Shown in pieces: positions 34,357 through 53,672 of a stretch of 64,000 bases of DNA. Position 1 is the stretch's first letter. Each line of letters opens with the position of its first letter. The position numbers and the translations under genes were made by a program. The stretch is from an uncultured beta proteobacterium (GTDB lineage Bacteria > Pseudomonadota > Gammaproteobacteria > Burkholderiales > SG8-41), in assembly GCA_963828715.1 (NCBI GenBank), contig CAWHFX010000018.1:9178-73177 (forward strand), in the 5' to 3' direction. A model generated the notes under the pieces. That model did no database searches, was not told where the DNA came from, and was given only the letters and a program-made list of their open reading frames with translations.

Positions 34357-34919
34357 GATCAGCGCTCCGACGGGCAAAACCCATGCCTTGCGTCGAACCC
34401 TGCCCCGCACGACTAAAACACTCAACTCAATGGCAAGACTGGCGAGCGTCGAATTTCAAAAACAAGCGGAGCTCCGTCAAATTGGTGATCACCCCCGGTG
34501 ACGGTTTCGCGCTTAGTGTGCTTCAGCGGTAGTGGGCCGGGTCTGGGAAGCGGAGAACCCACTGGGAGTTCCGCACCCATCACGGTCGTTCTGAACTGGA
34601 TGGCCGCCCTCAAGCGATGAACGCGGAAGACTCGAGGCCTTCTAACGGGTCGCCGCGCGGGTCCACAACTACCACCTTCGTCTGGCTGGCAGGCTCCGAT
34701 GTAGCGATTCCAAATCGCTAGCGCCGGAGGGCGTGTTCGGACATAATCAGCGCGCTCCCAAACTTTCGAAAACATGACTCCTGCCACTGGCAGCCGCTGG
34801 CCGTACGAGATTGGTGTCCCATCCGACTCCCCCGCCACACGGCTCAGTCGAGACCACGCCGAAGCTCTCTGCCAATCGCACCCGAGCCACGTGAGTCGTA
34901 GCCAAGCGAAAAGAACGCG

Positions 34920-37536
34920 ATGAAAGCTGGTGACACGCTCGGGGCGTATCGCGTCCTGGGCAAGCTTGGCGAAGGCGGAATGGGTGAGGTCTATCGCGCG
35001 CGCGATACGAAGCTCAATCGCGACGTCGCGATCAAGGTCCTGCCGGAGATCTTCGCGCTCGATCCGGATCGCCTGGCGCGGTTCACGCGCGAGGCGCAGT
35101 GCTGGCGTCGCTGAACCATCCGAACATCGCCGCGATCTACGGGATCGAGGGAGCAGGCGCTGGTGATGGAGCTGGTCGACGGCGAGGACCTGTCGGCAAT
35201 CATCGCGCGCGGTCCGATGCCGATCGCCGAGGCGCTCCCAGTCGCGCGGCAGATTGCGGACGGCGCTCGAAGCGGCGCACGAACAGGGCATCGTCCATCG
35301 CGATCTGAAGCCGGCGCAACATCAAGGTCCGCGCCGACGGCACGGTGAAGGTGCTCGACTTCGGCCTCGCGAAGGGCGATGGATCCGGCATGGCGTCTGT
35401 CGAGCGCGGACGCGATGCACTCACCGACGCTGACGGCGCGTGCGACCCAGCTCGGCGTGATTCTCGGAACGGCGGCCTACATGGCGCCGGAGCAGGCGCG
35501 CGGCAAGGCGGTGGACAGGCGCGCCGATATCTGGTCATTCGGCCTCGTCGTTTACGAGATGCTGACGGGTCGCCGCGCCCTCCAGGGAGAGGAAATCGTC
35601 CGACGTGCTTGCCGCCGTGCTGCGCCAGGACATCGACTGGTCCGCGCTGCCATCCGACACGCCGCCGCGTCTGCGCCGGCTCCTCGAGCGTTGTCTCGAT
35701 CGCGACGTCAAGCAGCGCCTGCGCGATATCGGCGAGGCGCGAATCGCGCTGGGAAGCGCCATCGAGTCCGAACCGGCGCCCGGCCGCCCGGCGCGGCGCT
35801 CGCCGCTCTGGGTGCTTGCGGCGCTGGCGTCCGCGTCTTTGGCTGTGGCGGCGTTCGTGGTGTTGAACCGGCCGGCCGCACTTCAGAAACCCTCGATTCG
35901 CTTCACGATTCCGCTTCCGCCTGGCGAGGAGATCACGTCGTACCCAGCGATTACACGCGACGGTCGCACACTCGCCTATGTCACCGAGCGGGGGGCCAAC
36001 GATGCGCAACTCTACCTGCGCGATCTGAATGCGTTCGAACCGCGCGTAGTGGCGGGATCGAGCGGCGCGCGTCAGCCGTTTTTTTCACCTGACGGCAAAT
36101 GGATTGCGTTCTTCGCCCAGGGTCAGCTGCAAAAGGCCGAGGTGACCGGCGGTGCTCCCGTCCGGCTGACCGAAGCCGCATATCCTTTCGGCGGGACGTG
36201 GAACGACGACGACACGATCATTTACGCCGCATCGCTCGGCTCAGGCCTCCTGCGGATCAGAGCGAGCGGCGGCAGTCCTGAATCACTGACCAAACCTGAC
36301 GGCGCGGCACAAGGATACGCTCACGTGTTTCCGCAAACGCTTCCCGGTGGACGGAGCGTGCTGTTCACGATGTGGGGACAGACACAGGGCAGCAAGGTAC
36401 TATTCCTGGATTCAGGCCAGTCGGATCTGATCCTGCGGGGGGAGAATTTCGCCGCCGCGACCTTCCAGGCAACCGGCGGCTCGAGCGGTCGTCTGCTGCT
36501 GTCCGATCAGGTCGCCGGCATCCGGGCGGCGCCGTTTGACGTCGCCCACCCGGTGCCGACGAGCGCCGATGCGTCGGTGCTGACGAACGTGAACTACGAG
36601 GTGGAAACCGAAAGCGTCGGCTGGCTGGCGGTCTCGAACACCGGCACCGCCGTGTACGCGACTGGCAACCCGTCGCGAGCGTCGCTGGTCTGGGTCGATC
36701 GCGCGGGAAAAATCGAGTCGCTCGGCACCGGGCAGGAGAAGTATCGGGAGGCCAGCCTCTCGCTCGACGGACAGAAGGCCGTCGTCAGGGACGGTCTCGA
36801 CCTCTGGATTCATGACCTGCAGCGCGGCACGCGAAGCCGCCTGACCTCGGGCACCGGCAGCAATATCCTTCCGCAGTGGAGCCGCGACGGCACACGGATC
36901 GTGTTCGCGTCGAATCGAGGTGGCGACTGGGACATCTACGGGCAACCGGCCGATGGGGCGCGGCCTGCGGAAGCGCTGCTCAAGCGGCCTCACGATCAGT
37001 TTCCACTTGCGCTGCTGGCCGACGGGACGCTGCTCTACACCGAGATCGATCCGAAGACCGGCCGGGACCTCTGGATTCTGTCTCCGGATGGGAAGACCTC
37101 TCCATTGCGGGTCACGCCTTACAACGAAACCGCGGGTCAGTTCTCCCCGGGCCCGGAGGGCGGCCCTCGCTGGCTCGCTTATTCATCCGACGAATCGGGA
37201 CGGAGCGAGATCTACGTGCAGTCATATCCGGGCGGCGCGAACAGGATCCCGGTCTCGACCGGCGGTGGCATCCTGCCGATGTGGTCGCCCGACGGCAAGG
37301 AACTGTTCTATGTGACAGGAGACGCGGTCGTGGCCGTGCCGTTGCGGCCTGACGGGTCCTTCGGCGCGCCTCAACGGCTATTCGACCGATCGACCATGCT
37401 GTTCAATCACCGGTTCCACAGCTACGGTGTCTCGCACGACGGCAAACGGTTCCTCGTGATTCTGCGCGATCCGGGATCGGTGCCGCGGCAGCTCAACGTG
37501 ATTCTCAACTGGACTGACGAGATCGGCCGACCATGA
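34920..37536 (+). pseudogene. Ser/Thr protein kinase with TolB-like beta-propeller region; 6 indels confined to the kinase domain
   Basis: Kinase pieces [27 protein letters not shown] / [16 protein letters not shown] / LVMELVDGEDLS / IVHRDLKPA / VKVLDFGLAK / GTAAYMAPEQARGK are scattered over three frames. Changes are near 35099, 35155, 35262, 35317, 35375 and 35598. From 35605 to 37536 a single 643-aa frame is open (TM plus FSPDGK/WSPDGK blades). Confidence 0.85.
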
Positions 37537-37664
37537 GTGTCGCCGCGGGTACACGACTCGGCTCGTACGAAATCAGCGCCGCAGGGGTTCTGGGTCAGGA
37601 GGGCAATGACCGACTGCGAGTTGCGGATCGAGGCGCCTGCCCGGCACACGGCAGGACGGCATGA
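37533..37664 (+). pseudogene. 43-codon relic of a kinase gene, ATGA-overlapped with both neighbours
   Basis: MSVAAGTRLGSYEISA... matches the N-terminal consensus of the neighbouring kinases (compare MPLTSGARLGSYEIVS at 5250), then diverges. Its ATG overlaps the upstream stop (37533..37536) and its TGA overlaps the downstream ATG (37661..37664). Confidence 0.5.
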
Positions 37665-40231
37665 GTAGCGTCACGTCAGGCGTCCACCTCGGGCCATATC
37701 TGATTACGCAGCCTATCGGTGCGGGCGGAATGGGCGAGGTGTACCGCGCCCGCGACACCAGGCTCGATCGCGACGTCGCGATCAAGGTCCTTCCCACGCT
37801 GATTGCGCAGGATTCCAATCGTCGTGCGAGGTTCGAACGTGAAGCGCGCGCCGTCGCGGCGTTGACCCACCCGAACATCCTCGCGATTCACGACGTCGGC
37901 ACGCACGACGGCACGCCATACCTGGTGACCGAATTGCTCGAAGGCGAAACGCTGCGTCAGCGGCTTGGGGAAGGAGCCCTGACGCCGCGCAAAGCTGTCG
38001 AGATCGCCGTCCAGATTGCCAGCGGGTTGGCGGCGGCGCACGAAAAGGGCATCGTCCACCGCGACCTCAAGCCGGAGAACGTCTTCGTCACCCGTGTCGG
38101 CCGGGTCAAGATCCTCGACTTCGGGCTGGCCGCACAGTTGACCGACAACGCCGGCGATGCCGACTCGCCGACGATCGCTGGCGGCACCGAGCCCGGCGTG
38201 ATCCTGGGCACCGTCGGGTACATGTCGCCGGAGCAGGTCCGCGGCGCGAAAGTCGATCATCGAACTGACATCTTCGCCCTGGGCGCCGTCCTCTTCGAGC
38301 TGCTCACCGGGCGGCGCGCGTTTCAGCGCGACACGTCCGCCGAGACCATGACGGCGATCCTGAAAGAGGACGTTCCGGAACTCTCGTCGACGGGACGCCA
38401 AGTACCACCACCGCTCGATCGCATCGTCCGGCGGTGCCTGGAGAAGAATGCCGACGAGCGGATGCAGGACGCCCGCGACGTCGCGATCGCGCTCGAGGCC
38501 GTCTCAGGCAGCGATGTGTCGACGTCCTTCAGCGCGCTCGAGCCGCCGATGACGTCGCGCCGATCCTGGCGACTCCTGGCGCTTGCCATCGCGCTTCTCG
38601 TCGCCGGCGCTGGCCTGGGCTTTCTCGCCGCGGCAATGAGGACGCCAGCCGCGGTGTCCTCCGAGCTGCCTCGCTTCCGCCAGCTGACGTTCCGACGAGG
38701 CGATGTCCGCAACGCACGGTTTGCGCCCGACGGTCAGAACATTCTCTACAGCGCCCTCTGGGATGGTGAGCCGCAACGCATCTACTCGGTTCGTCTTGAA
38801 CGCCCCCGCGCCGACGCTCCGGCGATAGTCGACGCCCTGCTGCTCGCCGTCTCCCTCTCGGGCGACATGGCCATCGCCACTGGTCCGCAGCGTGAGAATC
38901 TCTTCGTCGATCGTGGGACGCTGGCGCAGATTCCGCTGAGCGGCGGTGCACCTCGCGAGTTGCTGGAGGGCGTCAGCCAGGCCGACGTTGGAGCCGACGG
39001 ACGCATCGCGGTCGTGCGTTCGGACCGCGGTCGCATGCGGCTCGAGTTCCCCATCGGCACGCTGCTCTACGAGACAGCGGGATGGCTGTCGTTCCCGCGC
39101 GTGTCACCCGACGGCAAACGCGTCGCCTTTAACGAGCACCCGTTGCACGACGATGACCGTGGGTGGCCCGCGATGGTGGAGGTGGCGAGCAAGGCCAAGC
39201 GGAATCTGCTGCCTGAACAAGACTCGGTCTCCGGTCTCGCTTGGACGCCTGACGGCCAGAGAGTCTGCTTCGGAAGCTTCGCGTCGATCCTGTGCACACC
39301 GATCGAGAAACCTGCATTACGGGTCGTGGCGAGAGGCACGCAGTGGTTGGTGCTCCAGGACATTGCCAGCGACGGCCGGATGCTCGCCGTGACGCAGGGC
39401 ATGCACGGGGCACAGGTGGCAGGCGAAGTGGGCGGGCGCGAAGTCGACCTCTCGTGGCAGGACGTCGCGTTTCCGGTCGATTTCAGCCCAGATGGCCAGC
39501 GTCTCCTGTTCGGAAGCCTGGACTACGGGGTCCATCTTCGCGGGCTCGACGGCGGTCCGCCGATCCGGCTCGGAGAGGGCATTCCGGCAGGGATCTCACC
39601 AGATGGTCGATCTGTGCTCGCGCTCGCGCCTGGGGTGCCGACGACGATCGCGATTGTCCCGACTGGCGCCGGTTCGACTCGGACCCTGCCCCGCGGGGCA
39701 CTCGACGCGCATACCGGGGCGGCGTGGATGCCTGACGGCCGTCATGTCGTGATTTCAGCATCCGAGCCCGGGCACGGCTCGCGCCTCTACCTCCAGGACA
39801 CGGTTGGCGGCGAACCGCGGGCTTTCAGCGGTGAGGGCGCACGGCTCACGACGTATCTGCCGCGGGTCGTGTCACCAGACGGCCGCTTCGTGATCGCGGT
39901 CGCACCGGATCAGCGACCCGCGCTCTACCCCATCGCTGGTGGCGACCCCCAGCCGATCGCGGCGCTCGGGAACGACCTCATGCCGATCGGGTGGGGTGAA
40001 AGTTCCGAAGCCATCTTCGCGAAGGGCCGCACGCTCGGTCGTCTGGTCCCCGTGTTCAAGATCGATCTCACGACCGGACGCCGCCAGCCGCTGAAGGAGG
40101 TCGGCCCGGCCGACCCGACGGGCGCTCCGATGGTTTTGTCGGTCCAGGTCTCACGCGACGGCCGCCGTTACGCCTACTACGTGTCGCAGCCGCTCGGGAC
40201 CGTCGTGCTCATCGAAGGCGTCAAGCCGTGA
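37661..40231 (+). CDS. Ser/Thr protein kinase with TM segment and large beta-propeller-like C-terminal region, intact
   Basis: [46 protein letters not shown]; a TM segment near aa 300; FAPDGQ/VSPDGK/FSPDGQ/ISPDGR/VSPDGR blade signatures. 856 aa. Confidence 0.9.
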
Positions 40232-42735
40232 CGTCATCGAAGCTCGACGCACTGGTGATCGGTCAAAGCCTCGGCCCCTATCAGATTCTTGCAAAACTGG
40301 GCGAAGGGGGAATGGGCGAGGTCTATCGCGCGCGCGACACGAAGCTCGAACGCGACATCGCGCTGAAGATTCTTTCCGCCGAGTACACGCGAGACGCTGA
40401 ACGTGTTCGGCGCTTCAAACAGGAAGCCACCGCAGCGTCGAGCCTCAATCATCCGAACATTCTCACCATTCACGAGGCCAGCGAAGCGCAGGGTTGTCAG
40501 TTCATCGCGACGGAATTCATCGATGGAGAAACCCTGCGTCAGATGCTGAGTCGGGGCGAGAACCTCCCGCCGACCGAGGCTCTCGCCATCGCCGTGCAAG
40601 TCGCATCGGCGTTGGCAGCGGCGCACCAGGCGGGCATCGTCCATCGGGACGTCAAGCCGGAAAACGTCATGGTGCGACGGGACCGCTACGTCAAAGTCCT
40701 GGACTTTGGGATCGCCAAGCTGACCCAGAGGAATGGACCGATCGACACGAACACTTTTACCCAAACGCAGGCCCACACCTACGCCGGCGCAATCATCGGG
40801 ACCTTGCCGTACATGTCCCCGGAGCAAGCCCGCGGCACCGAGGTAGATGCGCGCTCTGACATCTGGAGCATGGGATGCCTCCTTTACGAGATGCTCGCAG
40901 GACGTTCGCCGTTCGCGGGCGGCACCACGACTGATGTGCTCGTGGCGATTCTCGACAAGGAGCCGGCGCCACTCGCAAAACTCGATCCTCGAGTCCCTCC
41001 CGAATTCGACTGGATCATCGGCAAAGCGCTGCGTAAGAGCGCTGCCGAGCGGTACCAGACAACGGAGGAGTTGCTGGTCGACTTGCGGCGGCTGCAGCAG
41101 AAGCTCGACTTCGAGTCACATCAGCAGCGCGTGCTCGGTCACGATGTTCCTGTCGTGGCGGCACCAAGTCCCTCCGAGAATGCGCCGGCATTGCCGAGCG
41201 ACCAGCCCGGCCACCGTCGAGTGACTTCGCGCCTCGTTGCTGTCACGATCAGCGGCGCGCTGATTGCGGCGGCGCTGGCGTCCGCGTGGTACTGGCAACA
41301 GCGCAAGGCTCTTCCTCAATTTCAGGTCCATTCGCTGGTCGTACTCCCGTTGAAATCGCTCGACGCGAACGACAATTACCTCGGTTTGGGCATTGCGGAT
41401 GCCGTGATCCGGAAGACCAGCCAGACCGGCGAGTTAATCGTGCGCCCGACCAGCGCCGTCCGCCGCTACCTGAATGACGACACCGATGCACTCACGGCAG
41501 CACGGCAGCAAAGCGCAGACGTCGTGCTCGAGGGGAGCGTGCAACGCGCGGGCGACCGCTTGCGGGTGAGCGTAAACCTGTTGCGCACGGCCGACGGCGT
41601 GTCGATCTGGGCCGACAGTTTCGAGATGCGCACGACCGACATCTTCGATATCCAAGACACGGTTGCTCAGCAGGTGGCGTCGCATTTGCGGCTCAAGCTG
41701 GACTTGTCGCAGCAGGCGCGGCTTGCCAAGCGACAAACGACGAATCCGATCGCCTACGAGTTCTACCTCAAGGGTCTCCATAAATTCGATCAACGGCTGT
41801 CTATGACCGACGCACAGATTGCCAGCACCATCGACTTCTTTCGGAAGGCGGTCGAGGCGGACCCCAAGTTTGCGCTGGCACACGCGCAGCTCGCGTACGC
41901 GTACGCCACCATCGCCGTCTTCTCGCAGACGGCCGATGACAGTGTGGCCAATCAAGCCAGGTCTGAAATCGGGCAGGCGCTGGCGCTCGATCCAGAACTG
42001 GCCGAAATCGCGCTGGCTCGTTCTCAACTACTGTTCAGCCGATACGAAGGATTCCAGGGCGCGGAGGCTGTCCGCGTGCTCCTCGCCGCCGAGCGACTCG
42101 ACCCCAACATCGGTCACGCCGAGTTGGGCTATCTCTACAGCCACCTCGGACTATCCGATCTGGCAGAACGCGCATTGCAACGGGCGCTGGAGATCGATCC
42201 GACCAGCGAGTTTGCGAAAGGGCAGTTGGACGCCACTTACGAATTCGGCGGACAATTCGACCGTTGGGTCGAGGCGCATCCGCGATTAGAACCGAACCTG
42301 CCCATCGATCCGTGGTATTTCCTGGCCACAGGCCGCCTGGACGACGCGGACCGTGCCATCAAACAGGCTGACACAGCCACCACCATGGGGCAGGCCAGCC
42401 TCTTGTCGGCCAAAGCACTGCTCGTTGGGATGAGAGGTGATTTCCAGGCGGCGCAGGCAATGATTCCCTCGATTCTCAAGCGTTACGCGGTCAAGGACCC
42501 GTTCTATCACCACGCGTCGTACGCAATCGCCGGCATCTACGCGACGGGTGGAAAAAGCGCCGAAGCGGTCAAGTGGTTGAGGGAAGCATGCGCGACGGGG
42601 TTCTCTGCCTACCACTACTTCGAGCACGTCGCCTTCCTCGATCGCATCAGACAAGCTCCCGAATTCGTTCAGTTCATGGCGGAACTGAAAGCGACCACGG
42701 ATCGGTATCACCGCGAGTTCGAATCGGCCAGATGA
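40228..42735 (+). CDS. Ser/Thr protein kinase with TM segment, TolB-N-like region and TPR repeats, intact
   Basis: The GTG start overlaps the upstream stop (GTGA). [47 protein letters not shown]; C-terminal TPR-like helices (AYEFYLKGLH..., ALELDP...). 835 aa. Confidence 0.9.
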   Translation: MTSSKLDALVIGQSLGPYQILAKLGEGGMGEVYRARDTKLERDIALKILSAEYTRDAERVRRFKQEATAASSLNHPNILTIHEASEAQGCQFIATEFIDGETLRQMLSRGENLPPTEALAIAVQVASALAAAHQAGIVHRDVKPENVMVRRDRYVKVLDFGIAKLTQRNGPIDTNTFTQTQAHTYAGAIIGTLPYMSPEQARGTEVDARSDIWSMGCLLYEMLAGRSPFAGGTTTDVLVAILDKEPAPLAKLDPRVPPEFDWIIGKALRKSAAERYQTTEELLVDLRRLQQKLDFESHQQRVLGHDVPVVAAPSPSENAPALPSDQPGHRRVTSRLVAVTISGALIAAALASAWYWQQRKALPQFQVHSLVVLPLKSLDANDNYLGLGIADAVIRKTSQTGELIVRPTSAVRRYLNDDTDALTAARQQSADVVLEGSVQRAGDRLRVSVNLLRTADGVSIWADSFEMRTTDIFDIQDTVAQQVASHLRLKLDLSQQARLAKRQTTNPIAYEFYLKGLHKFDQRLSMTDAQIASTIDFFRKAVEADPKFALAHAQLAYAYATIAVFSQTADDSVANQARSEIGQALALDPELAEIALARSQLLFSRYEGFQGAEAVRVLLAAERLDPNIGHAELGYLYSHLGLSDLAERALQRALEIDPTSEFAKGQLDATYEFGGQFDRWVEAHPRLEPNLPIDPWYFLATGRLDDADRAIKQADTATTMGQASLLSAKALLVGMRGDFQAAQAMIPSILKRYAVKDPFYHHASYAIAGIYATGGKSAEAVKWLREACATGFSAYHYFEHVAFLDRIRQAPEFVQFMAELKATTDRYHREFESAR

Positions 42736-42745
42736 GGAATAGTCT

Positions 42746-42780
42746 CTGGCTGCTGGCTGCTGGCTGCTGGCTGCTGGCTG
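42746..42780. repeat. (CTGGCTG)x5 perfect tandem heptamer
   Basis: ctggctgctggctgctggctgctggctgctggctg, directly after the stop of the last kinase gene. Confidence 0.9.
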
Positions 42781-42809
42781 AATGGTGACTGGAAACCTTA
42801 GACCGCTCC

Positions 42810-43150
42810 ATGCCCCACCTCGATCCGGTGCTGCTCTCCGACGCGCGCGTCGTCGCCGCCTACGCCATTTTCATCGGCAGCTACTTCGTGTTCGCGCTCG
42901 GGAAGTTCCCGGGGATGAAGATCGACCGCCCCGGCGCCGCCATCATCGGAGCCGTGCTGATGGTCGCGTTCCGCATCGTCGGCGCACAGGAAGCGCTCCA
43001 ATCGGTCGACTTTGCGACCATCGTGCTGCTCTTCTCGATGATGTTGATTGTCGCGAACCTGCGCCTGGGAGGATTCTTCGAGCGGATCGCGGAATGGATC
43101 GTGGAGCGGCTGCAGCCGCATCACCTGCTGCCGACCGTCATCTTCACGTG
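42810..43150 (+). pseudogene. 5' fragment of an ArsB/NhaD/CitMHS-type anion permease
   Basis: MPHLDPVLL...[39 protein letters not shown]...[33 protein letters not shown]...LLPTVIFT is family-typical. After about 43148 the frame reads non-membrane junk because it is antisense to the Bug fragment. Confidence 0.65.
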
Positions 43151-43400
43151 CGGCTGGCGAAGCGACCTCGATCCCGAGATAGCCCGACGCGCCGGCGCGG
43201 TTCTCAATCACTACCGTCTGCCCAAGTTGTTTAGCAAGCTTCAGCTCGACGATGCGCGCCACGAAGTCCGACGCGCCGCCCGGTGCAAACGGCACGATCA
43301 TCCTGATCGGCCTGTTCGGGTACTCGTCAGCAGCGAAGGCACTGGCGACCGCGGCGGGCAGAAGCAGCGCCAGGAACGAATTACGCAACCTGCCTGACAT
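43150..43400 (-). pseudogene. 5' fragment of a Bug/TctC-family periplasmic binding protein
   Basis: [83 protein letters not shown], then loss of similarity at about 43150. Full-length paralogs in this window are about 320 aa. Confidence 0.7.
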
Positions 43401-43442
43401 TGCGACTCTCCTCACGTCTTTAGTCCACGCCGGTGTGCGCAG

Positions 43443-44417
43443 CTATTGCTGCTGGGCTATTCCCAGGTCATGTACCACCTTCGCCCATCTCACCCGCTCG
43501 GCCTTCATGTATGCAGCAGCCTTGTCGGCCGACATCACGTAAAGCTGAAAGCCGTTATTCAGGATCCGCTTCTGCGTCTCGGGCTGCGCGAGCACCTCTG
43601 CGAGCGCCCTGCGAAGCCGCCGCAGCACGTGTCGCGGCGCACCGGCGTTCGTGCACAAACCCTGCCATGAGACGACCTCGAAGTCAGGCATTCCCGACTC
43701 CGCCAAGGTCGGCACGTCCGGCAACTGCGGATCGCGCTGCTTGGATGTCACGACCAGCGCCCGGACCTTGCCGCTGCGCGCCAGAGACAGCACCGAGGGG
43801 ACCGTCGAAGTCATGACCTGGACACGGCCTGCCATGAGATCGAGCTGTGCTGGCCCGACACCTTTGTAAGGGACGTGGACGAGATCGATGCCGGCCTGCA
43901 TCGTGAAGAGCTCCATCGAGAGCTGCGGTGAGGTGCCCACGCCGCCTGAAGCGTAGTTGAGCTTGCCGGGGTTTGCCTTCGCAAGCTCGATCAGTTGCCC
44001 GATGGTGGTAGCCTGAACCGATGGATTCACGCTGAAAGCGTTGGGATTGTTCGCGATCAGGCCGAGCGAGGCGAAATCGCGCTCGGGGTCGTAGCTCAGG
44101 TTCTTGTAAAGTGCGGGGCCAACCGCGAGCGACGCGATATTGCAGCTCAGGAGCGTGTACCCGTCCGGCGCCGCACGCGCTGCGATCTCGGCGCCCACGG
44201 TGTTGCCGGCGCCGGAACGATTGTCGACGACGATCTGCACCCCGAGGATCTCTGAGAGGGGCGGCGCTATGGTGCGGCCGACGAGGTCGGACGCGCCGCC
44301 CGGACCCGTTGCCACGATGTAGCGTATCGGCTTGGTCGGATACTCCGGAGCTGCGGCCGAGACGTTACCAATGAACGTCAGCAATGCTGTGACAGCAACA
44401 AAGCACAGGCTTCTCAT
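43443..44417 (-). CDS. Bug/TctC-family tripartite tricarboxylate transporter substrate-binding protein
   Basis: Start MRSLCFVAVTALL at 44417. YPTKPIRYIVATGPGGASDLVGR...VVDNRSGAGNTVGAEIAARAAPDGYTLL... matches the family. Confidence 0.88.
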   Translation of the reverse strand: MRSLCFVAVTALLTFIGNVSAAAPEYPTKPIRYIVATGPGGASDLVGRTIAPPLSEILGVQIVVDNRSGAGNTVGAEIAARAAPDGYTLLSCNIASLAVGPALYKNLSYDPERDFASLGLIANNPNAFSVNPSVQATTIGQLIELAKANPGKLNYASGGVGTSPQLSMELFTMQAGIDLVHVPYKGVGPAQLDLMAGRVQVMTSTVPSVLSLARSGKVRALVVTSKQRDPQLPDVPTLAESGMPDFEVVSWQGLCTNAGAPRHVLRRLRRALAEVLAQPETQKRILNNGFQLYVMSADKAAAYMKAERVRWAKVVHDLGIAQQQ

Positions 44418-44555
44418 CGTCGGTCCTCCTTTGTCGTCGAAGATGTCAAACGTTGCACGAGCGTATGAAATCAATGAGCAGCTCGGGTGCGAGAGCACTG
44501 TCACGATTACTGCATGGGTGCACTCCACACAGCCGATGCCGGCGCGATGCTCGCA

Positions 44556-45515
44556 TCAACCCTCCTGCTCGATGTGCGAATCCCTCATTACCCGCCGCCA
44601 CTTGTCGATGTCCGCCTTTATGCGCTCACCAAACCGTTCGGGAGGCCCACCGGCCAGATCCAGACCTTCACCGCGCGTACGTTCTTTCATCTCTGCCGTG
44701 AGCAACACTTTCGCAACTTCCTTGTTCCACCGAATGACGACATCCCGCCGCACTCCCTTCGGACCCCAGATGCCATACCAATGGCTGACTTCGTAACCCG
44801 GAACGGTCTCGCCGATCGTCGGCACGTCAGGCAACGCTGGTGACCGCTTCGCCGGTGTGATCGCCAGTATTCGCACCCTGCCTGCTCGTGCATGCGGGAT
44901 GGTCGGCACCATGCTGGTCATGCTTGTCTGGATCTCGCCAGCCATAAGCGCATTCAATGCCGGCCCGGCGCCCTTGTATGGAACGTGAACGATGTTCGTG
45001 TCAGTCGAAAGCTTGAAAAGCTCAAAAGAAAGATGCACGGCGCTGCCTGGGCCCACCGATGCATAGTTGAGCTGGCCTGGACTCGATTTCGCGAGCTTGA
45101 TCAACTCGCCCGTCGTCTTGGCAGGCACTGAAGGATTGATCGTCAGCGCGAGGCCAGTCGTCCCGATCAGGATGACGGGTTGAATATCCCGAACGGGGTC
45201 GAACGCCAATCTCCGATAAGCCCCGGTCGCTGCATAGCTGGCGGACACCAAGATGAACGTATAGCCGTCAGGCTCAGCCCGTGCGGTGATCTCCGCCCCG
45301 AAGGCGCCGCCCGCACCAGGCCGGTTGTCCACCAAGACCGTCTGGCGGAAAGCTTCCGACAGCGGAACTGCGATGGTTCGGCCAAGCATGTCTGTACCAC
45401 CGCCCGGTGGAAACGGCGCGATCAGGCGTATCGGTTTCGTCGGATATGTGTCCGACCAGGCGCTGGTCGTCCCGAGGCAAACGGCAGCAGCCGCGACCAA
45501 CGCAGCGGTCTTCAT
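44556..45515 (-). CDS. Bug/TctC-family substrate-binding protein
   Basis: Start MKTAALVAAAAV at 45515. YPTKPIRLIAPFPPGGGTDMLGR...VDNRPGAGGAFGAEITARAEPDGYTFIL. Confidence 0.88.
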   Translation of the reverse strand: MKTAALVAAAAVCLGTTSAWSDTYPTKPIRLIAPFPPGGGTDMLGRTIAVPLSEAFRQTVLVDNRPGAGGAFGAEITARAEPDGYTFILVSASYAATGAYRRLAFDPVRDIQPVILIGTTGLALTINPSVPAKTTGELIKLAKSSPGQLNYASVGPGSAVHLSFELFKLSTDTNIVHVPYKGAGPALNALMAGEIQTSMTSMVPTIPHARAGRVRILAITPAKRSPALPDVPTIGETVPGYEVSHWYGIWGPKGVRRDVVIRWNKEVAKVLLTAEMKERTRGEGLDLAGGPPERFGERIKADIDKWRRVMRDSHIEQEG

Positions 45516-46423
45516 CGGCTCTTCTCCTCGCGCAAGAGCAACGCTCTCAGCAGGCACTCGTCAGCTTGTCCAGCTTGTTGTAGTCACAGTCCGGAGCGGG
45601 TAACCGGATCCACGATATAGACCGGGGATACCGGCGCAAACTTACTGCGGCCGTCCTGGTGTCTCAGATAAATGCCGTCCCCGCGCTCTTTTGTCGTACG
45701 GTCGCCGTCGTCCTGCCTCATGACTAAGACCGCGGCTTTCAGATCGGCCTTACTTCAGTAAGCGGCCGCAGCGAGGGAATCACGACCTACTCTCAGATTC
45801 CGCAGGGACACGGAATGGGGCACGTTGATGCCGGTCAATGTTTTGAAGACTCGAAGGCGAGATGGACCCCCTTTCGAATGCCGGCTCGTCTGGCTCTGCT
45901 ATCGCGAGGCGTACGAGTTTCTTGATTGCCGTCCGTCGGCAACCAGCATTGGAATTACAGCGAGTTCCTCACTGCCGCGATCACATGGACATCTCGCGAA
46001 TGACTCTCGTTTGGGGCGCATATCGTCGCGACCCGGGGCGGAAAGTCCAGCGCCGAGCAAGTAACGTCGAGTTCAAAATTTACAGCCCGGGTTGGTGCAT
46101 AGCCGTAAGGACATGCATTTGTTGCTGGCGCGCTGTGTCCATGATGCCTTCGTCATCTGCCGCAAGCACATCAGTCTCCGCAATGAAAGCATGCAGCCAA
46201 CAGTGAGCTCAAGTTATCGCAACATGTTGTTCGAGGCGCGATTGGCTGCGGAACATCGCATGCAGGTTACGATCGAGCCGAAAGAAGTAAATCAAGCACT
46301 ACTCAGGTGCTTTCAGCGCGCGAGCGCTAATCGTGTAAGGAAATAGCAGGTCATCCGGTCTAATCGCGATGGAGCGCGTTAGCTCCGAACCACGAAGTCC
46401 TTTCTCCTCTTGAAATGCCCTCA

Positions 46424-46448
46424 GGCCCGGCGCGTCCGGGCCTTTTTT
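46424..46448 (+). terminator. Rho-independent terminator
   Basis: GGCCCGG-cgcgt-CCGGGCC followed by TTTTTT. No convincing ORF ends just upstream. Confidence 0.75.
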
Positions 46449-46569
46449 GGGGAAGTCTTACGAAGGCAGATCGTTAAGCGAAGCTTACATCGCAGTCGCA
46501 CCCGAATCAGTATATTCGCCGAAACTCAGGCGATCGTTAGCGTCAGCCGATTAGCCCAGGATACGTTTC

Positions 46570-47154
46570 ATGGATAACTTGATCGAAGCGGTCCCTGCGT
46601 CAGCTTTACAGTGCAGGCCGGCTGAGTCCAGCGATTCCAGGAGTCATGGCATGGCCAATCCGAGTAAGACGGCATTCGAAGGACTGGTCCGGGCCTATTC
46701 GTCTGAGCTTTACCGTTTCGCATACTGGCTCACCAGAGACCGGTTTTCCGCCGAGGATCTGGTGCAAGAAACGTTCGCACGAGCATGGAGCGCCTGGCAA
46801 TCCCTTCGCGAGCAGGGCGCGGCAAAGAGTTGGCTTTACATGATTCTGCGTAACGAGCATGCGCGCCTGTTTGAACGCAGACGGTTGGACATCGTCGAGG
46901 ACCAGGATCTCGATGCCCTTGAGGACCAGCGGATTGCTGCCCCCTTCGACGATATCGAAATTCGCGAAGCGTTGCATGCCTTGCCTGCGGCGTACCGAGA
47001 ACCCTTGCTATTGCAGCTCCTCGGTGGGTTCAGTTGTGACGAAATAGCGCGGCTCATGAATCTCACGTCAGGCGCCGTAATGACGCGCTTGTGTCGCGCA
47101 CGTCTAACGCTTCGTCGCAGCAGAGTCGCTGCGGAAAGGAATGTGAACCCATGA
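46570..47154 (+). CDS. ECF (sigma-70 family group IV) sigma factor
   Basis: Region 2 YRFAYWLTRDRFSAEDLVQETFARAW and region 4 EPLLLQLLGGFSCDEIARLMNLTSGAVMTRLCRAR. Alternative start MANPSK at 46651. The stop overlaps the anti-sigma start (ATGA). Confidence 0.88.
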   Translation: MDNLIEAVPASALQCRPAESSDSRSHGMANPSKTAFEGLVRAYSSELYRFAYWLTRDRFSAEDLVQETFARAWSAWQSLREQGAAKSWLYMILRNEHARLFERRRLDIVEDQDLDALEDQRIAAPFDDIEIREALHALPAAYREPLLLQLLGGFSCDEIARLMNLTSGAVMTRLCRARLTLRRSRVAAERNVNP

Positions 47155-47855
47155 ACTGTTTGCAATCCAGACGAGCTTTGCTTGCGGTCCCGCGCGAGCA
47201 ATCCGATGAGCATTGGGCCCACCTCCAAGAGTGTCAGTCCTGCTCGCAGTCACAACAGAGGCTCACAGACCTTGACAGATACATCGAGGAGGCTGCTCTC
47301 GTGCCGGTGCCCGACGCGCTCGTGCACCGCATTCTTCTGCCCCGGCGTATGCAGCCCGTCTCCCGCTGGGCGCTGGCCGCGAGCATGGCCATTGTGATGG
47401 CATCGATTCCGCTGGTCGCTGGGGAGGTAGTCGATGCTGTGGTTTTCTGGAGTACCACTCAAACCGTTTCTCCTACTCATCCCGCGCTAGCAGCGATCGC
47501 GGAGGTTGCCGAGGAAGCGCTGTCGCCGGCTGGCCGGCCAGCGTCTGATGTAGGGGTCGAACAGTCACTCAACCGTATCGGATTGGCGATAAAGGCAGGC
47601 GACGCTCATGTCGAATACGTCGGCAAGTGTCACATTGAGGCGAATCGGGATTGCGATCGCATCGCACTCAGCGCACCCGGCGCGCAGGCAAATGTGATGC
47701 TGATCCCGAACTACAGCGCCGGGGACCGCCTGCTGGTTCAAGACGGGCAGATGGTTGCATTGATGAGCTCTGCGCAGAACGGTACATACATAGTCGTCGC
47801 GACTAACCGAAAGGCAGCCCGGCGCATCGAAAAAATGCTTGTCAGGAGAGGTTAA
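47151..47855 (+). CDS. Anti-sigma factor (DUF3379-like: zinc-finger-type N-terminus, one TM, periplasmic domain)
   Basis: MNCLQSRRALLA...HLQECQSCSQ, a TM segment (WALAASMAIVMASIPLVAG), and translational coupling to the ECF sigma gene. Confidence 0.75.
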   Translation: MNCLQSRRALLAVPREQSDEHWAHLQECQSCSQSQQRLTDLDRYIEEAALVPVPDALVHRILLPRRMQPVSRWALAASMAIVMASIPLVAGEVVDAVVFWSTTQTVSPTHPALAAIAEVAEEALSPAGRPASDVGVEQSLNRIGLAIKAGDAHVEYVGKCHIEANRDCDRIALSAPGAQANVMLIPNYSAGDRLLVQDGQMVALMSSAQNGTYIVVATNRKAARRIEKMLVRRG

Positions 47856-47876
47856 TAAGGTGTGTTTACTGCGGGC
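47782..47876 (+). repeat. Repeat A (3' end of anti-sigma gene); direct copy A' at 55573..55653
   Basis: Hand alignment of 81 nt gives 9 mismatches: gtacatacatagtcgtcgcgactaaccgaaaggcagcccggcgcatcgaaaaaatgcttgtcaggagaggttaataaggtg versus the copy at 55573. Confidence 0.85.
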
Positions 47877-47957
47877 TCTCCCTGGCCGGGTCTTCCGACC
47901 ACTGCCGCGGTCACCCTCTGAATGTGGACTCGTGCGAATCGTGAAGGGCTTCAGAAC

Positions 47958-48251
47958 TCATCGCGACAGGGTCGCCTTTCGGCGCAAGTAAGTCCATAGG
48001 TCCGGCAGCAGGTGTCGCAGCATCCTGCGTACACTTCTGGGGAGGGAAAGCTGTTTCCGCAGCAGCACGCGTGCGGAAAGTCCCTCAGGTACACGCACGG
48101 CCATGGCAGCATCACGGATTTCGCACTCGAGCCGGACCAGATCCGCAGCAACGCTGCCGCACGTGTCACAGTGCGCCGTATGTGCGCGCACGTCGACCGA
48201 ATCCGTGAATGGGGCGACGTGCAGCGAGCGCTGTACATTGCGACAGTTCAT
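47958..48251 (-). pseudogene. Inverted N-terminal fragment of a second DUF3379-like anti-sigma factor
   Basis: MNCRNVQRSLHVAPFTDSVDVRAHTAHCDTCGSVAADLVRLECEIRDAAMAVRVPEGLSARVLL aligns with MNCLQSRRALLAVPREQSDEHWAHLQECQSCSQSQQRLTDLDRYIEEAALVPVPDALVHRILL. No TM or periplasmic part follows, and no intact sigma gene lies upstream. Confidence 0.55.
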
Positions 48252-48765
48252 AACGAACTGAAAGACCGAAGATCGGCTTGAGTACTTACAGTGGTACCCG
48301 TTGTGGCGCTGGATCGGCATCGGATCGACCGTGCGGTTCATCTCCCACCGCTTCGGTTGTCTTCGTCAATGTTCTGCGCGCCTGAAAGCGGCGACCCTGC
48401 TCTGAGGACTACGACGCCGGCCGACAACTCGGCGGTTGCATCCATCCGAATTGCATTTTCGTCCGCCTCCCGCCGCGTATGTCACCCGTGTATCGCAGTG
48501 TGACGTCGATACATTTTGATACACGCTCGTCTTTGATTTTTATCAAGTTCGCAGCTTCCACCAACTCGAACGCGGTCGTACATTTTCGCTAAGCGAACCG
48601 TTGACCCGTCTGCTCGGTTCGGAAGCGCACCTCCAACTACGGGATCGTCGTGGACGCCAAACTGCTGACCGCCATTGTTGCTGGACGGTAGAGCGGCGGT
48701 CCCCTTGCTGAAGGACGGCAAGACTGAACGTGATCTCGCTTTTAGGCGTGGGAAAAGGAGATGCC

Positions 48766-49137
48766 ATGGCAAAGAGTTACAGGGCAACGACCTCGAACAT
48801 CTCGCGGCAGATGGCCAAACTGCGCGCTGATATACCGGACACCATGAGCGGTTTCAGCGCGATGGCGAGAGCCGCGACGCGTCCGGGAACGCTGGACACC
48901 AAAACCAAGGAGCTCATCGCACTTGCGCTGGGCGTCGCTGCACATTGTGATGGCTGCATCGGATTTCACATGCAGGCTTTGATGAAAGCAGGTGCTTCGC
49001 GTGCCGAGATTACCGAGGCATTGGCAATGGCGGTCTACATGGGTGGCGGACCGTCGGTCATGTATGCGGCCGAAGCGATGAGCGCCTACGACGAGCTTTC
49101 CGCGCCCGACGCGGGGAAGACAGCCGCTGCGGCATAG
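48766..49137 (+). CDS. Carboxymuconolactone decarboxylase (AhpD-like) family protein
   Basis: GGAG 6 nt upstream of the ATG. LDTKTKELIALALGVAAHCDGCIGFHMQALMKAGASRAEITEAL carries the AhpD-like CxxC motif. Confidence 0.85.
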   Translation: MAKSYRATTSNISRQMAKLRADIPDTMSGFSAMARAATRPGTLDTKTKELIALALGVAAHCDGCIGFHMQALMKAGASRAEITEALAMAVYMGGGPSVMYAAEAMSAYDELSAPDAGKTAAAA

Positions 49138-49261
49138 GCAGGCGGATCGTCGCTTAGAATACAGTGCGGCAGGAAGTTGCCGCAGGGTTCGAATACGCAG
49201 TCGATCGGCGCACTGTTTCGAGTCTCGGGCAGTTTCATCACTCGCAATGGGAGTCAAACGC

Positions 49262-50491
49262 ATGTCGATAGAGACGAATGCCACTCGCCGACGGTTTATG
49301 ACCGGCGGCACGTATGCTCTGGCCCTCGCTGCCGGAGGGCGATTCACACGTATGGCGAATGCGCAGGCGCCGACCCTTGAGCTGCCGATCGCCAATGGCA
49401 AGCGCAACCTGGTGGCCTATCCCGAGAAACGCCCGTTGATCGTGCTCACGTCACGCCCGCCGCAGCTGGAAACACCATTCGAAGTCTTCAACGAGGGCGC
49501 GATTACACCCAACGATGCATTCTTCGTCCGCTATCACAACGCGGCGATTCCGACGGCAATCGACGCGGACAAGCACGTCATCAAGATCGGCGGAAACGCG
49601 GTCGGCAAGGCGTTCGAGCTCACCATGGCGGACTTGCGCACGAACTTCAAGCCCGTGGAGATCGTCGCGGTCAACCAGTGTTCGGGCAATAGCAGGGGCC
49701 TGTTTTCGCCGCGCGTAACCGGCGGGCAGCTGACGAACGGGGCTATGGGTAACGCGCGCTGGGTCGGCGTGCCATTGAAGGACGTTCTCGCTCGCGCAGA
49801 GCTCAAGGATTCGGCGCGCCAGGTCACGTTCGACGGCCTCGATCGGGCCGTGTTCGGCAGCGGCGATTTCGTCAAGGCGCTCGACGTAAACCACGCGCTC
49901 GACGGTGAAGTCATGCTGGCTTACCAGATGAACGGAGCGGATATACCAATGCTCAACGGCTATCCGGTCAAGCTGGTGGTGCCCGGCTACTACGGCACGT
50001 ATTGGGTCAAGCATCTCTCGGAGATCCAAGTGATCGATCATGTCTACCAGGGCTTCTGGATGAATCCTGCTTACCGGATACCGGACAACCCTTGTGCGTG
50101 CGTGGAACCGGGGACCACGCCGGCGGCGACGCGCCCGATCGGACGCTTCAACGTGCGCTCGTTCATCACGTCTCTTCAGGACGGTGCGCGCGTGCGTGCC
50201 GGCCAGCCGACGTCCGTCAAGGGCATTGCGTTCGACGCAGGACAGGGCATACGCGAGGTCGCCTATTCGCTCGATGGCGGGCAGACCTGGCGCGAAGCAA
50301 AACTCGGCGCCGATCTGGGGCGTTATTCGTTTCGCGAGTTCACGTTCGGCTTTACGCCGGAGAAGGGTACGTACGATCTGCGAGTACGTGCGTGGAACCG
50401 ATCGGGTCAGAGCCAGCCCATGGAAGCGTTATGGCAGCCTGCCGGCTACATGCGCAATGTCGTGGAAAAGGTCGTGGTCTCGGCTGCATGA
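49262..50491 (+). CDS. sorA: Sulfite dehydrogenase molybdopterin subunit (SorA-like, sulfite-oxidase family), Tat-exported
   Basis: Tat leader MSIETNATRRRFMTGG...ANA. Mo-cofactor cysteine context VNQCSGNSRG. C-terminal dimerisation domain. A small cytochrome c gene follows. Confidence 0.8.
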   Translation: MSIETNATRRRFMTGGTYALALAAGGRFTRMANAQAPTLELPIANGKRNLVAYPEKRPLIVLTSRPPQLETPFEVFNEGAITPNDAFFVRYHNAAIPTAIDADKHVIKIGGNAVGKAFELTMADLRTNFKPVEIVAVNQCSGNSRGLFSPRVTGGQLTNGAMGNARWVGVPLKDVLARAELKDSARQVTFDGLDRAVFGSGDFVKALDVNHALDGEVMLAYQMNGADIPMLNGYPVKLVVPGYYGTYWVKHLSEIQVIDHVYQGFWMNPAYRIPDNPCACVEPGTTPAATRPIGRFNVRSFITSLQDGARVRAGQPTSVKGIAFDAGQGIREVAYSLDGGQTWREAKLGADLGRYSFREFTFGFTPEKGTYDLRVRAWNRSGQSQPMEALWQPAGYMRNVVEKVVVSAA

Positions 50492-50501
50492 AGAGGAAGC
50501 G

Positions 50502-50834
50502 ATGAGTCCTCCATCGAGAATCTTGTTCGTCGCTGCGCTGCTGACAGCATGCACTGCACCGGCGATTTCAGCGCAGAAATCCATCACGTTGCCACCCGAC
50601 GGCGCTCAGCTTGTACCGAGCACGCTGTCGGGCTACAGCAAGGCACAGGCGAACTGCGTCGCGTGCCATTCCGCCGAATACATGCTCTATCAGCCGCCGA
50701 CTTCTTCCCGAGCTTACTGGGAAACCATGGTCAAGAGAATGAAGGCGGTCTTCAATGCGCCGATCGACGACTCAGACATGCCGGTCATCGTCGACTATCT
50801 CGTCAAGACGTACGGAAACGAGCAGCCGAAGTAA
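50502..50834 (+). CDS. sorB: Small monoheme cytochrome c subunit (SorB-like)
   Basis: Signal peptide MSPPSRILFVAALLTACTAPAISA, heme motif CVACHS, 110 aa. It starts 11 nt after sorA. Confidence 0.75.
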   Translation: MSPPSRILFVAALLTACTAPAISAQKSITLPPDGAQLVPSTLSGYSKAQANCVACHSAEYMLYQPPTSSRAYWETMVKRMKAVFNAPIDDSDMPVIVDYLVKTYGNEQPK

Positions 50835-50889
50835 GGCGGATTGAGCGATAGGGAGTTACGAGCCGGGCCGGAGTTCCAGCCGATAACTT

Positions 50890-50971
50890 CGGCTTACGCC
50901 ATCGCACGCTGCCGCTGTTCCTGCAAGGCGTACCAGCGCACGGCGATGTCCGCGATCGCCAAGAGATTGGA
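50890..50971 (-). repeat. Repeat C' (3'-end remnant of an MFS gene); direct copy C at 55659..55741
   Basis: ccgataacttcggcttacgccatcgcacgctgccgctgttcctgcaaggcgtaccagcgcacggcgatgtccgcgatcgcca differs from the copy at 55659 by 4 substitutions plus 1 indel over about 82 nt. On the minus strand it reads ...AIADIAVRWYALQEQRQRAMA*. Confidence 0.85.
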
Positions 50972-51106
50972 GCGCGGAATCGATCCTCACGTGGGCCTCT
51001 GCACTCCGCCGACTGGAGACGAAGAGCGCCACGCTCAGGCCCGCCGCCAGGAGCGGGACGGGCCCGGCGATGGGCCCCATTGCGATCATCCCTTCGGTGT
51101 CGGACC

Positions 51107-51919
51107 CTAGAAGAAGAGAGTTTCGGCGAACATCCCAATCGCGACTATGGCCGCGACCACGGCGAAGCCGATCTGCAGATGCGGCCCCGCTAGCCGTGCG
51201 GCGACCAGCCGGCCGCCAAGCATGCCGATCAGTCCGCCGGTAGTGAAGGGCACTGCCACCGGCCAATAAAACGTCCCCGCAAGTGCGCTCGTCACAACGC
51301 CGCTCGCGGATATCAGTGCGATTACCGCGAGAGAACTCGCTACGGTTGATCGCATATCCAGGTCGGTGAAGCGCTGCAGAGCGGGTACCAGGACAAAGCC
51401 CCCGCCAACTCCCAACAGTCCCGACAGAAGCCCGCTGAGTCCGCCCGATAGAGCCAACGCACGCGCACATCTTGTCGTCCAGATGAATCGTCTGCTAGCG
51501 GCACTGCGTACGCACGCCCGAGTCGGCGCCTTCACCTGATGGGCGCCTGCTAGTGGGTCTTTGGCCTGGCGAAAGGTTCTGTAAGCGACCAGCAACAGGA
51601 CGAGAGCGAACAGCACACCGAGCCAGCCTTCATCGGTTTGATGCGCGAGCCACAGTCCGACCGGGGCGAGCGCCATGCCGGCAGAGGCGATCAGCACCGA
51701 GGCCTTGTACCGAACGATACCGGCCCTGAGCCCGAGGGCTGCCCCGAGCGCCGCGGCCATGCCAACGGCGAGCATCGCGATGGGGGCGGCTTGCGGCAAG
51801 CTAAGATGTGCGCCAAAGACCCGCAGGGGCACGGCGAGGATGCCGCCACCGGCGCCGGTGAGCGCAAGAATAAGCCCAACAAGAAGGCCCAGAGACGAAC
51901 TGATCATCATCGACGACAT
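51107..51919 (-). CDS. TauE/SafE-family sulfite/sulfonate exporter (DUF81)
   Basis: 270-aa polytopic membrane protein. LALTGAGGGILAVPL and a second-half repeat GLLGVGGGFVLVPAL are typical of TauE/SafE. Confidence 0.8.
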   Translation of the reverse strand: MSSMMISSSLGLLVGLILALTGAGGGILAVPLRVFGAHLSLPQAAPIAMLAVGMAAALGAALGLRAGIVRYKASVLIASAGMALAPVGLWLAHQTDEGWLGVLFALVLLLVAYRTFRQAKDPLAGAHQVKAPTRACVRSAASRRFIWTTRCARALALSGGLSGLLSGLLGVGGGFVLVPALQRFTDLDMRSTVASSLAVIALISASGVVTSALAGTFYWPVAVPFTTGGLIGMLGGRLVAARLAGPHLQIGFAVVAAIVAIGMFAETLFF

Positions 51920-52395
51920 TGGCGGGAAGGGCTGCGCTTGAACTTCAGCAGCCTAAGAAGCCTTGCGGCTACGCTTACCCGCAGCCGTTGCTGCTCCACA
52001 AACTCGAATGTTGCCATCCCTGCGAGCAGCGCAATGATGAAAACGAGCGGCTTCACGCCTCCAGTCAGCAGCGCTGCCAGCACCGGGCCCGGACAGTAGC
52101 CCCCAAGGCCCCAGCCGATACCGAACAGCACCCCACCCAAGACGAGCCTGCCATCGATTTGCGTCGTCGTGGGCAAACGCATGACCTCGCCAAGCAGAGT
52201 CCTCGTGCGCTTGGCCGCGAGCGCGAACGCGAACGTTCCGACGGCTATCCCGCCGACCATGACCATGGCGAGCGATGGGTCCCATGCGCCCGCCAAGTCC
52301 AGAAACGCGAGCACCTTCGATGGATCGGTCATACCGGATACGATCAAGCCGATGCCGAAGACGAGCCCTGCCACCAACGCCATGAATGCGCGCAT
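51907..52395 (-). CDS. YeeE/YedE-family sulfur-transport membrane protein (small half-size form)
   Basis: GIGLIVSGMTDPSKVLAFLD and GIGWGLGGYCPGP motifs. Confidence 0.75.
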   Translation of the reverse strand: MRAFMALVAGLVFGIGLIVSGMTDPSKVLAFLDLAGAWDPSLAMVMVGGIAVGTFAFALAAKRTRTLLGEVMRLPTTTQIDGRLVLGGVLFGIGWGLGGYCPGPVLAALLTGGVKPLVFIIALLAGMATFEFVEQQRLRVSVAARLLRLLKFKRSPSRQCRR

Positions 52396-52401
52396 AAAGC
52401 G

Positions 52402-52836
52402 TCACCAGCTTAAAACGTGACGGGTGATGTATACCGTCGCGAAACCTGCCAACATGAAAGACGCCACCGCGACAAGTGAGCGCGGCGAGCGTCGCGACAG
52501 TCCGCACACGCCATGTCCGCTTGTGCATCCCGAGCCGTATCGCGTGCCGATCCCGACCAGCAGCCCGGCTGCGACAAGGGTGACGTAGTCAGCGTCTATA
52601 CGCACTTCCGGCAGCGGCGCCGCGAGGGCATAGATCAGCGGCGATCCGATCAAACCCACCAGGAAGCTCATGCGCCAGAACCGGTCGCCGCTTGCGGCTC
52701 GAAGCATGCCTCCAAGGATGCCGCTGATCCCTGCTATCCGGCCGTTAAACAGAATGAACAAACCGGATGCGACGCCGATGAGCAACCCCCCGAAGAGGGA
52801 GAACCAAGGCGTGAAGTTCGGCCAGTCTATAGTCAT
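52402..52836 (-). CDS. YeeE/YedE-family sulfur-transport membrane protein (small half-size form)
   Basis: [11 protein letters not shown] and [21 protein letters not shown] (conserved Cys motif). It pairs with 51907..52395. Confidence 0.8.
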
Positions 52837-52892
52837 ATCTTCCCGCCCTTAGCGCCGGCGTGGCAGATGGACGGTGTACTCGCGCGCCATCG

Positions 52893-53644: not shown

Positions 53645-53672
53645 CGCGAACGGAGGCAGCGCGCCGCGCCGC

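Follow-up and report, generated by a model that had tools for sequence, protein, structure and literature searches.

Inter-genome chimeric contigs are a kind of error that tools such as GUNC flag in metagenome assemblies. Most chimeric reads are filtered out by assemblers, a circumstance that counts against explaining the join described here as a chimera. A genuine transfer of DNA meets an objection of its own, since insertions of at least 21 kb between phyla in which no vehicle took part are very rare.

The DNA analysed here, a stretch of 64,000 nucleotides referred to as the window, changes from an acidobacterial to a betaproteobacterial background inside two genes that face each other. This join, at 43157/43158, is most probably (about 0.8) an inter-phylum assembly artefact, probably bridged by a chimeric read. 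The features concerned are the following.

43157..43158, no strand: the junction, the dinucleotide GC, 2 bp common to both parents, without filler, adapter or N
42810..43158, plus strand: 5' fragment of a CitMHS/ArsB/NhaD-type (SLC13-like) permease gene, 116 codons plus 1 nt
43157..43400, minus strand: 5' fragment of a Bug/TctC periplasmic binding-protein gene, 81 codons plus 1 nt
1..43156, no strand: acidobacterial (Vicinamibacterales-like) segment, syntenic with contigs L005 and L006, GC 64.6%
43157..64000, no strand: Burkholderiales-type betaproteobacterial segment, nearly identical to soil contigs, GC 60.7%
Missing from the window: the 3' part of the permease, which reads ...LSAFLVNDIVCL...

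Anatomy of the junction and the parental sequences beyond it

A preliminary description of this DNA had reported two 5' gene fragments abutting head-on near 43,150. Both open reading frames are indeed there, and their Pfam family matches are partial. The permease frame (42810..43397, plus strand) matches CitMHS (PF03600) at residues 27-113 only, corresponding to profile positions 3-87 of 336. The Bug frame (43400..42798, minus strand) matches TctC (PF03401) at residues 47-83 only, corresponding to profile positions 1-37 of 274, with a score of 26.9 bits against a cutoff of 27. Neither the permease frame nor the Bug fragment matches the profile of its family over the full length, and the permease piece, judged from its sequence, is a 5' fragment of a family member and not a functional gene.

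The break was fixed to the base by a three-way alignment of the window with the acidobacterial contig L006 and the Bug-side contigs L003 and L004, in which the two parents overlap at 43157-43158. In this alignment the permease fragment ends ...VIFTCGW and the Bug fragment ends ...GIEVAS. The truncation of both genes described earlier therefore stands, and only the lengths need correction: the permease keeps 116 codons instead of 113, since L006 matches through 43158, and the Bug gene keeps 81 instead of 83, since L003 and L004 match from 43157. Past the break, both reading frames are a meaningless read-through of the antisense strand of the other gene. The break interrupts two convergent genes that are unrelated to each other and that both lose their 3' ends, and the neighbouring genes are complete, namely two Ser/Thr kinase genes (with PD40 or TPR domains) on the left and two TctC genes on the right.

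A perfect heptamer microsatellite, (CTGGCTG)x5, occupies positions 42746-42780 of the window, upstream of the permease fragment, in the intergenic stretch that separates it from the gene for an 835-aa kinase; it is unrelated to the break. L006 has no counterpart of the 835-aa kinase, and only about 22 bp separate the gene for its 856-aa kinase from the permease.

L006 is a 1.29-Mb contig of the MAG 'uncultured Acidobacteriota bacterium MFD00392.bin.2.134', obtained from a scan of GTDB species representatives. It aligns without gaps to the permease fragment through 43158 (95% nucleotide and 97% amino acid identity), after which its permease goes on as ...WLSAFLVNDIVCL; this part, reading ...CGWLSAFLVNDIVCL, resembles other members of the family. 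A search with a degenerate pattern for a near-identical intact parent of the permease gave 0 matches, so that 95% is the highest identity at which an intact left parent is known.

On the Bug side, contigs L001-L004 and L091 were reached by an exact match to the protein of the neighbouring Bug gene and through relatives of the fragment. One such relative, protein P0001, is 98% identical to the Bug fragment and goes on as ...EVASQATPDGYTLLLGN. Three of the contigs follow the window down to 43157 with BLAST identities of 99.8% (L003; ENA, megahit k141), 99.5% (L004; JGI 3300015371, 11.6 kb) and 97.9% (L091; ENA ERZ25039567 contig_45628, 21.8 kb). All three leave the window exactly at this base and run into the rest of the Bug gene and then into further Bug genes. 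They are independent contigs, from different samples and assemblers. In L091, which covers window positions 43157-48678, the region corresponding to window 43157-43400 lies at 8785-9028; the gene called there is 325 aa long, has a TctC match and is followed by more Bug genes. As expected for a chimera, each parent is found elsewhere and continues differently past the break, the right one at 97.9-99.8% identity and the left one at 95%.

Lineage, composition and structural variation of the two sides

The gene content left of the join had been called Acidobacteria-like, in agreement with the labelled relatives and with synteny to L005 and L006. The permease fragment retained 80 GTDB loci; 72 of these, including all of the top 18, are labelled as MAGs of the Acidobacteriota lineage, the best of them at 97% amino acid identity, and the relatives at 73-97% bear the names Vicinamibacterales, Terriglobales and Acidobacteriota. 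L006 is 83-96% identical to the left segment, and the 856-aa kinase encoded directly upstream of its permease is 95.7% identical to that of the window. L005, a contig of 401 kb from ENA/NCBI, shares synteny with the window from 7.8 to 27.3 kb, at nucleotide identities of 80-94%. The genes shared with it encode MutM/Fpg, a PQQ/GSDH-type dehydrogenase, a 3-keto-disaccharide hydrolase, an AMP-dependent (acyl-CoA-type) synthetase, a CarboxypepD_reg protein, DinB, a RES-domain protein, a hydrolase and Crp. The left side also encodes Ser/Thr kinases with PD40/TPR domains and DabA; its CarboxypepD_reg, PQQ/GSDH-type dehydrogenase and 3-keto-disaccharide-hydrolase-type proteins are named after the Pfam labels of the L005 orthologues. 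On the basis of these sequence comparisons, the left 43 kb is assigned to Acidobacteriota and is Vicinamibacterales-like.

The content of the right side had been described as Burkholderiales-type, and this is upheld by its genes and by the relatives of its Bug and SorA proteins. It includes three full TctC genes, genes for an ECF sigma factor, a DUF3379 protein and SorA/SorB, a YeeE/YedE-type pair, a LolA-like/ABC system, and an ORF at 51107-51919 which, reading by eye, we take to be TauE. Such a set, with Bug genes, an ECF sigma factor accompanied by DUF3379, SorAB and others, is typical of Burkholderiales. The named relatives of the Bug fragment are Betaproteobacteria, Casimicrobiaceae, Usitatibacteraceae and Burkholderiales, plus one truncated 'Xanth...' label, and those of SorA are Betaproteobacteria, Burkholderiales and Ramlibacter at 81-82%. 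The best plasmid or chromid matches of the right side are to Cupriavidus and Ralstonia.

Over window positions 43157-45996 and 51749-53429, the sequence agrees at 99.2-100% with soil contigs assembled from short reads (JGI, Logan and ENA). Ten of the 11 short-read contigs align to the right side without gaps, the single gap being in L086 at about 52 kb, and the right-side contigs, which come from more than eight samples and are 99.5-100% identical to the window, have no gap less than 8 kb from the join. A 6.9-kb Logan contig (ERR15459706) keeps the gene order of window 44-50.8 kb, namely SorB, SorA, CMD, a 127-aa ORF, DUF3379, sigma factor, Bug2 and Bug1. This near-identity to many soil contigs indicates that the right side faithfully reproduces the sequence of a free-living population that is widespread, and is neither an ameliorated nor a degraded insert. 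When the best matches of each side are compared, the halves fall into different lineages, Acidobacteriota/Vicinamibacterales on the left and Betaproteobacteria/Burkholderiales on the right, a difference in taxonomic origin that is characteristic of chimeras.

The GC content is 64.6% to the left of the join and 60.7% to the right. The observation that the right side is less GC-rich was thus correct; "extremely GC-rich" was an overstatement for the left side, as the two are about 4 points apart. Profiles of GC, tetranucleotides and codon usage compared across the join also differ, to a moderate extent. The tetranucleotide correlation is 0.953 between left and right and 0.987 and 0.969 within the sides, and the first principal component of an unsupervised tetranucleotide analysis flips sign between 40 and 44 kb. 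GC3 is 0.77 on the left and 0.73 on the right, and the left-right correlation of RSCU, 0.971, lies below the permutation mean of 0.982 (p about 0.03). The shift away from host composition that is looked for in genomic islands is therefore present, though modest.

The right-hand population carries structural scars of its own. At window 52893-53644 (minus strand), a Crp-like cNMP-binding N-terminus without HTH is fused in frame to a piece of a persulfide dioxygenase (ETHE1-type MBL). The fused piece matches residues ~26-66 of ETHE1-type structures, and a separate 46-aa ORF that follows it matches residues ~209-246. The same arrangement is found in JGI contig L087 at 99.8% identity, which identifies it as a real deletion scar in the betaproteobacterial population; odd scars of the right side that are shared with other samples are thus biological. 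Contig L088 departs from the window at about 53180.

Two direct repeats connect distant parts of the right segment, 47782-47862 with 55573-55653 (81 nt, 89%) and 50880-50937 with 55659-55716 (58 nt, 97%). Their adjacent copies at 55573-55716 comprise the 3' end of a DUF3379 anti-sigma gene followed by the region downstream of SorB, and look like the remnant of a second sigma/anti-sigma-SorAB locus with its middle deleted. A second DUF3379 anti-sigma gene, truncated (profile positions 1-75 of 232) and without a partner sigma-factor gene, is located at 47958-48341 (minus strand).

Comparison of the window with L004 and L091 revealed that the Bug-gene array is structurally polymorphic between samples. 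L004 departs from the window at 45996 (L004 position 3777), where Creatininase and Lar genes replace the sigma locus; the gene order of the window past 45996 is backed by L091 and by a Logan contig. At 6880-6885, L004 lacks 4.1 kb that are present in L091 (9292-13422), and its third Bug gene is cut to 170 codons. L003 (1,063 bp, megahit) is a co-linear three-piece mosaic of L004 with overlaps of 7-9 bp at the joins, its pieces 1-70, 64-926 and 918-1063 corresponding to L004 1450-1519, 6102-6965 and 11172-11317; L003 thus represents a deletion variant or else a chimera of short reads.

That the junction arose by a rearrangement or deletion within one lineage, convergent genes of a single genome having lost their 3' ends together with the intervening DNA, is scarcely credible. 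Two convergent genes that both lack their 3' ends are exactly the product of a simple deletion, and deletions of this kind do occur in the right-hand population, as the persulfide-dioxygenase remnant shared with L087 and the 4.1 kb by which L004 differs from L091 illustrate. However, the two sides belong to different phyla, and relatives of either side carry no genes of the other, so the taxonomy of the two halves excludes a deletion in the same lineage.

It is likewise very improbable that a betaproteobacterial genome, or an element belonging to it, captured at least 43 kb of acidobacterial DNA. The junction anatomy, with its 2-bp overlap, would apply to such an event as well, and the many real structural scars and variants of the right-hand population indicate a plastic genome. 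Nevertheless, the left 43 kb shares with acidobacterial chromosomes a syntenic stretch of about 20 kb made up of ordinary chromosomal genes, among them those for MutM/Fpg and the AMP-dependent synthetase, and L003, L004 and L091 are all devoid of acidobacterial sequence. The objections to a transfer in the opposite direction, given in the next section, hold here too.

Search for a vehicle, uniqueness of the junction and quality of the consensus

The statement that the join lacks an integrase, a transposase, a tRNA and terminal repeats was confirmed by ORF/Pfam, tRNA and repeat checks. No ORF adjoining the join encodes an integrase or a transposase, the neighbours being kinases, the permease fragment and TctC genes. 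No tRNA was found near the join, flanking repeats are limited to short ones at chance level, and no inverted repeat is present at 43157. The only tRNA call in the window is dubious: the 94-nt tRNA-Cys predicted by ARAGORN at 31583-31676 (plus strand) lies inside the DabA coding region on the opposite strand and is probably a false positive. The boundary thus has neither the integrase or recombinase nor the tRNA/att site with direct repeats of a genomic island, whose other boundary would be outside the window, and the junction has neither the IS nor the inverted repeats of a deletion mediated by an IS or transposon.

Three other origins of the join were considered and rejected. A plasmid or ICE origin of the right block was dismissed, as megablast found no match for it among 72,556 plasmids. 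A scaffolding gap is excluded because the window sequence contains no Ns, and a k-mer- or repeat-mediated chimera of the assembly graph because the parents overlap by just 2 bp.

The ORF that spans the fusion is on record as P0121, a protein of 195 aa that forms a singleton cluster and comes from one NCBI/ENA contig of 148,045 bp. Proteins of the left side are recorded on this contig only, and those of the right side on up to five contigs from four sources. A 24-mer across the join is absent from the JGI metagenome contigs (241 million records). Exact-protein look-ups of two left kinases and of the two junction-crossing ORFs returned nothing; P0121 nonetheless records the fusion ORF. Within the collections searched, the junction was not reproduced in independent data, which is the behaviour expected of a chimera.

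If the join were real, in whichever direction, it would represent a very recent inter-phylum integration by illegitimate recombination without a vehicle, and this is unlikely. We consider it distinctly unlikely, in particular, that a Vicinamibacterales cell very recently took up 21 kb or more of Burkholderiales DNA, which entered the permease gene through illegitimate recombination of the microhomology or end-joining type and cut short one gene of the host and one of the donor. A microhomology of 2 bp without filler would be expected of illegitimate recombination, the unameliorated composition suits a recent event, and the sequence was deposited as one continuous contig free of Ns. These points are opposed by the lack of any integrase, IS, tRNA, att-like repeat or plasmid/ICE signature and by the right side, which is 99.5-100% identical to free-living populations sampled many times over. 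Moreover, the 24-mer search of JGI revealed no second sample with the junction, and the remaining 21 kb of the window do not return to acidobacterial sequence.

It is quite improbable that the contig is correct as it stands and depicts a soil acidobacterium with a recent, vehicle-free block of at least 21 kb of Burkholderiales chromosome inserted at a 2-bp microhomology. The same low probability applies to the proposal that such a block brought in Bug transporters, an ECF sigma/anti-sigma pair, the SorAB sulfite dehydrogenase and sulfur-transport genes. If true, it would provide a direct snapshot of a large inter-phylum transfer in soil without a mobile element, which would be a rare observation.

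The closest relatives of the left side, L006 and many others among the GTDB permease loci, are Microflora Danica MAGs, for which Nanopore reads were assembled by Flye (metagenome mode) and polished in one Medaka round (PMC12313526). L005 and L091 bear the same 'contig_N' naming. We infer that the source contig likewise comes from a Nanopore/Flye-type long-read metagenome assembly.

The contig resembles an error-prone long-read consensus whose quality is uneven, with many interruptions of reading frames on the left side. DabA (DUF2309) is broken across four reading frames and DabB across at least two, and a frame-tracking model revealed runs of frame switches on the same strand, located at 28-33 kb, with more of them near 3.8 and 7.3 kb. 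A crude GC-periodicity HMM did badly on the right side, labelling many real genes there as non-coding, and was applied to the left side only. When the kinase gene at 34.7-35.7 kb is aligned with its homologue in L006, 17 gap openings fall within about 950 bp, each of 1-3 bp and most of them of 1 bp. At least two of the 17, judged from conserved kinase motifs, are single-base insertions in the window; the window and L006 are both long-read consensuses, so other indels may lie in L006. Single-base indels also distinguish the window from L005, several of them at short homopolymers.

Apparent frameshifts occur at about 1900 in an FAA-hydrolase gene (the match to the Pfam profile stops at 172 of 214), at 3797-3801 in a kinase-PD40 gene (2529..5250) and at 7313 in a gene for a PAS histidine kinase (5378..8453). 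They are dense in the zone 27500-37650, a segment of about 10 kb that is absent from L006. This zone is a strain-specific segment whose long-read consensus has low support, or else a group of decayed genes.

The 5.5 kb directly left of the join (37.6-43.16 kb) are gapless relative to L006, and the right side has no or one indel relative to short-read contigs over about 4.5 kb. Frameshift density was considered as a proxy for a coverage step and rejected, because the poor zone (27.5-37.6 kb) stops short of the clean 5.5 kb; being apart from the join, it provides no internal proxy of coverage there.

The proposed chimera and its comparison with known systems

The preliminary description had offered two readings of the join, a chimeric assembly or the scar of a foreign acquisition combined with a deletion. 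This pair of readings is supported, and the evidence favours the chimera. The parents continue past the break, with three independent contigs running straight through it; the right side is nearly identical to free-living populations; the junction is recorded on a single contig; no vehicle is present; and the consensus is evidently weak elsewhere in the contig.

The assembly would have fused DNA of soil bacteria that are not related, its left part stemming from a Vicinamibacterales-like acidobacterium and its right part from a betaproteobacterium of Burkholderiales type. A few chimeric reads, or just one, may have arisen when fragments of the two were ligated end to end during library preparation or were read back to back, and these reads could then have bridged two contig ends at low support. 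Such end-to-end joining of fragments would explain why both genes lost their 3' ends at a random position, since a chimeric read is expected to produce a blunt break at random positions in unrelated genes of arbitrary relative orientation. It counts against a chimera that no adapter remnant is visible and that the search for an intact left parent yielded one of 95% identity, not a near-identical one. The 2-bp microhomology is equally compatible with real illegitimate recombination.

The junction is most probably not a new biological feature, and its importance lies in the curation of public MAGs and in the avoidance of false calls of horizontal transfer. Its value is thus one of data quality, as a public NCBI/ENA contig of 148 kb appears to fuse two phyla. 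The genes of this contig can mislead binning statistics, taxonomic assignment and screens for horizontal transfer; they include that of the 195-aa fusion 'protein' P0121, which already serves as a cluster representative in protein collections.

Among the known systems, genomic islands and other integrative elements resemble the window in presenting an abrupt foreign-looking block with lower GC and different codon use. The window differs from them in having no integrase or recombinase, no tRNA/att site and no direct repeats, in a boundary that lies inside two coding sequences, and in a donor-like side that matches a free-living population at 99.5-100% identity. Illegitimate recombination that follows natural transformation, including its homology-facilitated form, shares with the window a blunt join, a 2-bp microhomology and genes truncated on both sides. 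However, known cases usually have a homologous anchor on one side and related donors, whereas the window shows no anchor and its partners belong to different phyla.

Graph-based chimeras of metagenome contigs usually form at a shared repeat, whereas the parents here have only 2 bp in common, and we infer that a chimeric read must be invoked. In its other traits the window resembles an inter-genome chimeric metagenome contig: the phylum switches at one point, each side exists separately, no vehicle accompanies the join, and the junction occurs in one assembly.
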